Positions 1,904 to 3,209 of a DNA stretch of 24,015 nt are shown in pieces (the stretch's first letter is position 1; each line of letters begins with the position of its first letter). The stretch is taken from NCBI GenBank assembly GCA_947629605.1, contig CANREK010000001.1:1-24015 (forward strand), given 5' to 3'. The notes under the pieces were generated by a model. That model was given only the letters and a program-made list of their open reading frames with translations, was not told the origin of the DNA and made no database searches. The DNA comes from an uncultured Clostridia bacterium (GTDB taxonomy: Bacteria > Bacillota > Clostridia > Christensenellales > Borkfalkiaceae). The position numbers were made by a program, and so were the translations under genes.

Positions 1904-1980
1904 TCCGTCGTGGGTGCCCCATGGGGCTGAGATGATACCATTTGAATCGGGCAAGGTAATGCTTGCACGAAAGCAACGGA
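1904..1980 (+). ncRNA. TPP (THI-box) riboswitch aptamer, variant P4/P5
   Basis: P1 UCCGU/ACGGA, GGU-GCCC-CAUG-GGGC-UGAGA-UGAU-ACC, UUUGAA junction, P5 CAAG-GUAAUG-CUUG. Lies upstream of a thiamine transporter and is followed by a terminator. Confidence 0.8.
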
Positions 1981-2000
1981 AACTCTTCGGAAAAATTCTG

Positions 2001-2032
2001 CCGCTCACGCCCTCTTTTGTGAGCGGTTTTTT
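2001..2032 (+). terminator. Attenuator terminator of the riboswitch expression platform
   Basis: CCGCTCAC-N10-GTGAGCGG followed by TTTTTT, between the aptamer and the thiT RBS. Confidence 0.85.
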
Positions 2033-2075: not shown

Positions 2076-3209
2076 ATGTTTCTCAATTCCCTCTTGGCGG
2101 ACAAACCCGTGTGGTATCCCGTCCTATTTGATTCCCCGCTCAACATTGCGCGGGGCATTGCGTTTTGGCTGACGCTCATTCTCGCCATCGGTTTTGTGCT
2201 CGGCGCATTGCTCTTGAAGGGGCCGCAGCGGAAAAAATTCCTTAGATATGCTTCGATTTCCGCCATCGCCTACGCCTGTGCGGTCGCCCTGCTGTTCCTC
2301 ATTTGGACTTTCGTTGATGACGGCATAGTGACAATGCTCTTCGTTCCCATACTGATCCTCATCGTCGCGATCGCCGGAAGCGCTGTTACCCTGTTTTTCA
2401 ACCGCTCCAAGACCGTTGTCACTGTGCTTGCTTGCACTGTTGGCGCAGCCGCTGTTGCAACCCTTGTCTGCCTCGGTGTGTTCTATGCCCGGAACATCGC
2501 GGGCGACGGCTACTACAACTCCGAAGTCGCGTCGGTCAATCAAATCGTCCTCTACATCAGTGCGGCCGCGCTCATCGTCGTCATCGTTGCACTCGGATTC
2601 CTTCTCGGCACGGGCGACAAAAAGGGATTCGACAGCAAATCGATTGCCTATGCGGGCATCTGCATCGCCATGAGCTTTGCGCTCTCCTATGTGAGATTTT
2701 TCAAGCTCCCGCAGGGCGGTTCCGTGACCCTCGCCTCCCTTCTCCCCCTCATGATCTATTCGTGCATGTTCGGAACGCGTAAGGGCGTATTTGCGGGGCT
2801 CATCTACGGCATTTTACAGGCGGTACAGGATCCCTACATCATCCATCCCGCACAGTTCCTTTTGGACTACCCCATCGCCTTTGCCGCGATCGGGCTTGCG
2901 GGGGCATTCTTCAATGTGAAAAAACTCGATCGGCTTCCGCAGGTGCAGTTTGCGCTCGGCGCGATCGTTGCAAGTGCGCTCCGCTATCTCTCCCATGTGC
3001 TCTCGGGCGTGTTTGCCTTCTCCGCCTATGCCGCCGACGCCGAAATGGGCGCGTGGATCTACTCCCTCGCCTACAACTCCTTTGTGTTCGCCGACATCGC
3101 GATCGCGATCGTGGTCGGGATCCTCGTGTTCAGTTCCAAGTCCTTTGTGAAGGAAGTCAAAAAAGTCCGCCCCGCCGAAAAGAAAGAGGAACCGGCGGAA
3201 GAGGAATGA
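2076..3209 (+). CDS. thiT: ECF S-component thiamine transporter ThiT (YuaJ family) with about 180-aa N-terminal membrane extension
   Basis: GGAGG RBS before ATG 2076. The C-terminal half has AMSFALSYVRFFKLPQGGSVTLASLLPL, PAQFLLDYPIAF and HVLSGVFAF...SLAYN motifs of ThiT. TPP riboswitch upstream. Confidence 0.85.
   Translation: MFLNSLLADKPVWYPVLFDSPLNIARGIAFWLTLILAIGFVLGALLLKGPQRKKFLRYASISAIAYACAVALLFLIWTFVDDGIVTMLFVPILILIVAIAGSAVTLFFNRSKTVVTVLACTVGAAAVATLVCLGVFYARNIAGDGYYNSEVASVNQIVLYISAAALIVVIVALGFLLGTGDKKGFDSKSIAYAGICIAMSFALSYVRFFKLPQGGSVTLASLLPLMIYSCMFGTRKGVFAGLIYGILQAVQDPYIIHPAQFLLDYPIAFAAIGLAGAFFNVKKLDRLPQVQFALGAIVASALRYLSHVLSGVFAFSAYAADAEMGAWIYSLAYNSFVFADIAIAIVVGILVFSSKSFVKEVKKVRPAEKKEEPAEEE

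Follow-up and report, generated by a model that had tools for sequence, protein, structure and literature searches.

A TPP-riboswitch-derived aptamer with a collapsed pyrophosphate arm precedes the thiamine importer gene thiT in gut Christensenellales and may have changed ligand specificity

What does a riboswitch sense when the arm that reads the pyrimidine ring of its ligand is canonical and the arm that should read the pyrophosphate is not? This question is raised by the leader of a thiT gene in a 1.28-Mb metagenome-assembled genome (MAG, 86% complete) of an uncultured Clostridia bacterium from rabbit gut. No riboswitch class is more common than TPP, and it serves as a model both for the recognition of ligands by RNA and for RNA as a drug target. 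The locus was analysed within a stretch of 24,015 nucleotides, hereafter the window. A sequence-only reading of the window had described an altered pyrophosphate-sensing arm next to a canonical pyrimidine arm and L5, and both descriptions hold, with the motifs UGAGA (1928-1932), UCGGG (1947-1951), L5 GUAAUG (1956-1961) and CACGA (1966-1970) found where they had been placed. Its proposal of a changed ligand specificity is plausible from the comparisons presented below.

When the entire 24-kb window was scanned with cmscan at the Rfam gathering thresholds, zero families were matched. A search with the TPP model RF00059 and an inspection of its P4/P5 columns had been proposed together with the initial reading, and this search, run at an E-value threshold, aligned positions 1900-1991 end to end at 43.5 bits (E 1.8e-7), below the gathering cut-off of 54.3 bits. 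The deficit lies wholly in P4, J4/5 and J5/4, where one P4 pair is non-standard and one position is deleted on each side of P5, in agreement with the reading of the arm as one nucleotide shorter on each side; P1, P2, P3, J3/2 and L5 are canonical in the same alignment. A covariance model made from an alignment of the genus (R1) gave 96.9 bits with the core 1902-1983. Besides RF00059, no Rfam family was found in the leader at E up to 10 except for a chance small RNA match, anti-hemB at 1997-2077 (15.8 bits, E 0.28), which covers only the terminator and the hairpins at the ribosome-binding site. A second TPP-like match in the source genome (contig 25, 19 bits) is located inside a minus-strand coding region and was rejected as spurious.

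The bases of the leader are not an assembly artefact, because exact copies of 1892-1973 and 1944-2090, without a single difference, are present in contigs from independent rabbit-gut metagenome runs. In runs X1, X3, X4 and X8, contigs of many different species share the aptamer core (1890-1975) and diverge right outside it, and since such contigs pile up on the core, several family members carrying the variant switch co-occur in single rabbit-gut samples.

The elements of the leader lie on the forward strand, and the promoter, P1, terminator and thiT are intact, as had been reported from the letters alone. A sigma-70-type promoter (TTTACA-17 nt-TATAAT with a TG extension, 11/12 consensus matches) is located at 1857-1885. 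The TPP-derived aptamer (1900-1991) is closed by P1, with the 5' strand UCCGU (1904-1908) read from the sequence as pairing with ACGGA (1976-1980). According to the RF00059 alignment, the pyrimidine-sensor arm (1910-1941) is composed of P2 (1910-1913 and 1915 paired with 1935 and 1938-1941), P3 (1916-1919 paired with 1924-1927) and the J3/2 motif UGAGA. The second arm (1947-1970), which is recognised as remodelled by genus and family comparison, contains P4 (1947-1949 paired with 1968-1970), G1950 opposite A1967, a layer formed by the pair G1951-C1966 that is a variable N·N layer elsewhere, and P5 (1952-1955 paired with 1962-1965) capped by L5. An intrinsic terminator follows at 2000-2033, with a 10-pair stem (2000-2027), a 5' arm at 2002-2009 and a T-run, and then a ribosome-binding site read as GGAGG (2065-2069), 6 nt 5' of the ATG of thiT (2076-3209). 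Just 5' of the promoter, at 1700-1740, there is a perfect GC-rich inverted repeat, GTTGCGGCGG...CCGCCGCAAC, with no T-run, which may mark the end of the upstream transcription unit.

In the numbering of E. coli thiM, the conserved pyrophosphate pocket of the TPP riboswitch comprises U59, A80, G60, C77 and G78; a metal that coordinates the pyrophosphate is held by G60, C77 and G78, and direct bonds to the pyrophosphate come from C77 and G78 (PMC3764141; PMC7824784). The roles of the J3/2 T-loop and of a P2 guanine in binding the aminopyrimidine ring are described in the same works (PMC3764141; PMC7824784), and A69 in L5 docks on P3 (PMC2018614). In the genus, J3/2 UGAGA and the GGGUGC of P2/P3 are invariant in 56/56 elements, so the aminopyrimidine-binding features are present, and L5 reads GUAAUN with an invariant fourth base A, the A69 equivalent, predicted to dock on P3. 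The second arm is nearly identical among the genus elements, with the core GAA-YCG-G-R-CARG-GUAAUN-CYUG-V-A-CGR-AAG. Of the pyrophosphate pocket only the G60 equivalent is retained in it: the equivalent of the U59-A80 pair is G-C in the genus, and C77 and G78 are without conserved equivalents.

Family-wide, the 3-bp P4 of the arm is followed by a G that faces an A, then by at most one variable N·N layer, by P5 CAAG/CUUG and by L5 GUAAUN. The P4 versions covary freely (UCG/CGA, CCG/CGG, CCC/GGG, CCU/AGG, UCU/AGA, UCC/GGA), and P5 has the compensatory versions CGGG/CCUG, CAUG/CAUG and CACG/CGUG. Among 41 family representatives, the first base of J4/5 is G in 38, the base facing it is A in 28 and G in nine, and C-G in J5/4 was found in one. 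The extra layer is a Watson-Crick pair in 13/41, leaving a helix broken solely by G·A, and the same holds for the window, where this layer is G1951-C1966 and G1950·A1967 is the sole break in the P4-P5 helix.

These comparisons modify the base-by-base assignment made initially. The retention of C77 had been proposed, and it is due to chance, because the position of C1966 varies among the genus elements (A 27, C 18, G 11) and the C of the window pairs with G1951. The change of G78 to A (1967) is not supported either: in sister families of the same order, thiT-leader aptamers score 57-74 bits and read CCU-G-U-[P5]-C-G-A/U-AGG, and with A or U already in the third place of their J5/4, a deletion of G78 is the better reading than its replacement by A. 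The Watson-Crick pairing of the proposed G60 equivalent with C1968 is real, G1949 forming the third P4 pair, and it is the assignment as G60 that has to be moved, since the invariant G1950 is a better equivalent than G1949. The variant arm is derived, given that the sister-family thiT aptamers retain C-G and score 57-74 bits, and most simply it would have originated by the loss of G78, with C77 becoming free to vary and the A at position 79 retained opposite G60. In the thiT leaders of another genus, g59 (L232, L245 and L246), a different arm is present, CCG-UG-CGCG...CACG-CG-CGG, which may retain the C-G of J5/4; these leaders have the lowest scores under either model (25-37 bits for R1), and R1 matches were absent in 3/10 sampled g59 genomes.

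The homologous thiT leaders that the initial reading had called for were gathered, and the arm is not unique to this assembly. Exactly one TPP-like element was found in 59 of the 60 species sampled in the genus, and in 55/60 it is the variant, 89-93 nt long and scoring 29-47 bits with RF00059; a ThiT gene lies 3' of every genus variant element for which the contig is long enough. R1 matched 143/150 sampled genomes of the family, covering 23/23 genera with related sub-variants, some of which reach 54-55 bits with RF00059. In 40 further representatives, chosen from every other genus of the family, the element precedes a ThiT gene in all 40, and the C-G of J5/4 occurs in just one. A scan with a loose pattern, in which P5 and L5 were unconstrained, detected the arm core in at least 119 species-level genomes, and the matches listed were all gut MAGs, assigned to Candidatus Gallimonas, Candidatus Borkfalkia, or uncultured Christensenellaceae, Clostridia or Firmicutes. 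Among the pattern-scan matches listed (80 loci), the extra layer was A·A in 39, G·G in 20, G-C in 12, A·C in six, U-A in two and G·A in one. Three genomes (G151, G183 and G233) carry two R1 matches each, and their thiT-riboswitch units may have been duplicated.

The alignments show that this shape is maintained. P2 to P5 are 97-100% paired in the genus alignment, with four compensatory pairs. In the family-wide alignment A2, which was fitted to the model, 95.6% of the cells are paired and double changes occur in 9/15 pairs, including three of the three pairs of P4 and three of the four of P5; compensatory changes were also seen in P2 and P3. This level of covariation was reached by 0/500 shuffles, and partners slid by 1-3 columns scored far lower. 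P1 can be formed in every species, and its column-wise pairing is only 51.9% because bulges in its 3' strand vary between species. As judged from these alignments, the variant fold is under purifying selection, and the conservation together with the compensatory changes supports the earlier opinion that the switch is not decayed.

A terminator is located 95-125 nt from the start of the aptamer in nearly every species, typically with the 5' arm CGCCCGC, and this arm is complementary to the invariant 5' strand of P1/P2. In the window, C1909-G1916 can pair with C2002-G2009 in a duplex of 8 bp with a computed energy of -10.9 kcal/mol, which makes CGUGGGUG (1909-1916) the putative 5' partner of an antiterminator. 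The register of this pairing is the same in 44/44 species with a clean terminator, and its mean energy is -11.9 kcal/mol compared with -9.5 kcal/mol for shuffled arms, a modest gain of about 2.4. From this complementarity we infer a standard OFF switch of the terminator type. Binding of the ligand would lock P1 and P2 and make CGUGGGUG unavailable to the 5' arm of the terminator; with this strand sequestered the terminator would form and thiT transcription would halt. Without ligand, the antiterminator would form and RNA polymerase would read through into thiT.

The gene controlled encodes a ThiT protein of 377 aa, the ECF S-component for thiamine, as indicated by matches to TIGR02357 (122 bits, cut-off 108) and PF09515 (9e-41). 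The ThiT domain corresponds to residues 190-357 and is preceded by a hydrophobic extension of about 190 aa, for which no Pfam or NCBIfam match was found. Residues 1-190 (window positions 2076-2645) contain, by appearance, about five hydrophobic helices. The extension is present in most relatives, and about eight ThiT proteins of the genus begin directly at the ThiT domain; in a sister family (locus L008), a canonical TPP switch precedes a long ThiT with the extension, 46% identical over residues 2-348. Thiamine pyrophosphokinase (TPK, PF04263) was found in 5/5 genomes tested, and thiamine-phosphate synthase ThiE (PF02581) in 0/5. With TPK present and ThiE absent, the hosts are thiamine auxotrophs that must import thiamine and pyrophosphorylate it.

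Canonical TPP aptamers, with scores of 57-69 bits, occur in four members of the genus and in another family member, G234, and they precede thiazole operons, either thiS-thiF-thiG or, in G234, thiS-thiF-rhodanese. These five aptamers carry a P3a stem (loci L088, L089, L027 and L030 in G019, G025, G048 and G047, and L255 in G234). Neither a ThiT gene nor a variant match was found in the four genus members with thiazole operons, and no R1 variant match was found in G234, which suggests that thiazole synthesis was retained or horizontally acquired in an otherwise auxotrophic family. Of the genomes sampled, 60 in the genus and 150 in the family, none carried both a canonical and a variant switch. 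The pattern among the sampled genomes is strict: the importer gene of auxotrophs has the collapsed pocket in its leader, and biosynthesis genes have the canonical one.

The suspicion in the initial reading that similar TPP variants might already have been reported was correct. McCown et al. 2017 (RNA 23:995, PMC5473149, citing Roth et al., in preparation) mention TPP riboswitch variants with mutations in P4-P5 in many bacteria and state that the affinity of these pyrophosphate-core variants for thiamin is similar to that for TMP and TPP. The mutations of those variants and of the thiT leader lie in the same P4-P5 core, and the behaviour mentioned is what the architecture of the leader predicts, the two being likened by description, as the 2017 work gives neither sequences nor a consensus, and names neither taxa nor gene contexts for its variants (PMC5473149). 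Variants that share a genome with a canonical switch are noted in that work; because no genome sampled here (60 in the genus, 150 in the family) carries both switch types, the argument that two specificities operate in one cell is inapplicable to these genomes. No paper after the 2017 mention was found with sequences or biochemistry of P4-P5 TPP variants, and such a class is not listed in the Breaker 2022 ligand review. TPP aptamers whose P4-P5 pocket is mutated were thus already known from a brief mention. New are the explicit architecture, its distribution over 23 genera of gut Christensenellales, the support from covariation, the strict association with thiT-only auxotrophy and the contrast, within the genus, with canonical switches on thiazole operons.

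The closest known system is the TPP riboswitch or THI element itself (RF00059; E. coli thiM, PDB 2GDI; Lactococcus lactis thiT leader, PMC8862789). The leader shares with it the three-way junction of P1, P2/P3 and P4/P5, the UGAGA pocket, GGGUGC in P2/P3, the conserved A of L5, a thiamine gene downstream and an OFF platform of the terminator type, here predicted. It differs in that the pocket of J4/5 and J5/4 is replaced: where C77-G78 would stand there is a base that varies or a Watson-Crick pair, U79 is an A opposite G60, and P4 in the genus reads YCG/CGR, not CCU/AGG. The HMP-PP riboswitch (thiS motif; Atilho et al. 2019, PMC6478431), a small hairpin aptamer embedded in a terminator that acts as an ON switch of thiazole genes, is also a thiamine-pathway switch distinct from TPP, but its aptamer is unrelated and retains pyrophosphate recognition; the leader showed no match to that family (Rfam, E up to 10), and its gene context is thiT, not thiS. 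Variants with shifted specificity are known in other classes (guanine to adenine or 2'-dG, c-di-GMP-I to cGAMP, and the ykkC subtypes; PMC5473149), and they share the theme of a retained scaffold in which a few pocket nucleotides are changed. In contrast to them, the thiT leader deletes a whole sub-pocket, which predicts a loss of discrimination and not a new ligand.

The ligand is expected to be some thiamine compound, because the pyrimidine pocket is canonical and the link to thiT is exclusive. The leader descends from the TPP (THI-box) aptamer and would control thiT, the sole thiamine-acquisition gene of a thiamine-auxotrophic gut bacterium; its internal loop for Mg2+ and pyrophosphate (A61-U62 facing C77-G78) has collapsed to a near-continuous helix. 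With this loop collapsed, the RNA most likely recognises the thiamine moiety without much phosphate discrimination. The explanation that we favour, and regard as probably correct, is an OFF switch of relaxed specificity that reads the thiamine moiety with little discrimination among thiamine, TMP and TPP. Such a switch would measure the total intracellular B1 pool.

The loss of both phosphate-contacting bases and the closure of the loop argue against canonical discrimination in favour of TPP. The invariant G and its opposing A could still organise a metal-phosphate site and restore selectivity via new contacts. If the G·A platform and Mg2+ built such a different but functional pyrophosphate site, the RNA would still be a TPP-selective riboswitch in which the chemistry has changed and the specificity has not. 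The retention of the G60 equivalent (38/41 representatives) and of the opposing A (28/41), the conversion of imported thiamine to TPP by the host TPK and the 54-55 bits of some sub-variants with RF00059 speak for this alternative, which nevertheless seems to us unlikely, if the strongest of the competitors: both bases in direct contact with the pyrophosphate are missing, the single-mismatch continuous helix of 13/41 representatives and of the window leaves no loop for a pocket, and relaxed discrimination of P4-P5 mutants has been reported by the Breaker laboratory (PMC5473149).

TPP is normally the dominant intracellular thiamine species, and since the hosts also have TPK, it may be the physiologically relevant ligand irrespective of the specificity in vitro. 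With an active TPK, free thiamine is expected to be scarce, and this weighs against a thiamine-specific sensor that would prefer the unphosphorylated vitamin, disfavour TPP and provide direct feedback from the transported substrate. Such a sensor would explain why the element is tied only to the importer and never to biosynthesis genes, and the closed helix could exclude Mg-pyrophosphate sterically or electrostatically; however, there is no evidence for exclusion of TPP, the sole published remark is of similar affinity for thiamin, TMP and TPP (PMC5473149), and we consider this reading improbable.

Still further down the scale is the sensing of another aminopyrimidine, such as HMP or a thiamine breakdown product, in place of thiamine. 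The pyrimidine pocket is the only one that is demonstrably canonical, as this would require, but hosts without ThiE could not use HMP, the controlled gene is always ThiT, no other Rfam family was matched at E up to 10, and the strict conservation of L5 and P4-P5 implies a continuing role of the second arm in ligand-dependent folding, so that this possibility is very slight. Finally, the view of the element as a decaying, non-functional relic of a TPP riboswitch, to which its score below the Rfam threshold might point, is practically refuted by the covariation data, as 23 genera conserve the element, every helix shows compensatory changes, the promoter and terminator persist, and true decay looks different, as in genome G027. 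In that member of the genus (contig 5, minus strand; L214, 1441-1590) thiT is absent and a mutated 3' half of the variant, GAAUGGGACGAGUAAGUACUUGAAUAAAAG, is followed by a terminator; this element appears to be a decayed remnant left after the loss of thiT.

Beyond the relaxed-specificity OFF switch, a bolder idea may be put forward tentatively, as one that we would not expect to prove right: the family-wide arm might be a purpose-built surface for the thiazolium/hydroxyethyl end of unphosphorylated thiamine and deserve a riboswitch class of its own. If this were true, it would be a true thiamine riboswitch class with its own binding chemistry and not a leaky TPP switch, and the first natural RNA sensor of the vitamin rather than the coenzyme, with which auxotrophs would gauge what the transporter delivers.

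The leader is a natural and strongly conserved aptamer from which the phosphate-sensing sub-pocket has gone while the remaining fold is retained, and a deletion of about two nucleotides may have been the route by which aptamer specificity was relaxed or re-aimed. Dozens of covarying natural sequences are now at hand for structural and binding work on a variant type that has been "in preparation" since 2017.

For the bacteria themselves, because the Rfam threshold misses the element in the genus, B1 regulation is unannotated across an abundant family of gut Christensenellales, the relatives of Gallimonas and Borkfalkia. The occurrence within one genus of the canonical pocket on biosynthesis operons and of the collapsed pocket on the importer amounts to a natural experiment on the circumstances that call for phosphate discrimination. 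Being thiamine auxotrophs, the members of this family compete with the host and with other microbes for thiamine.
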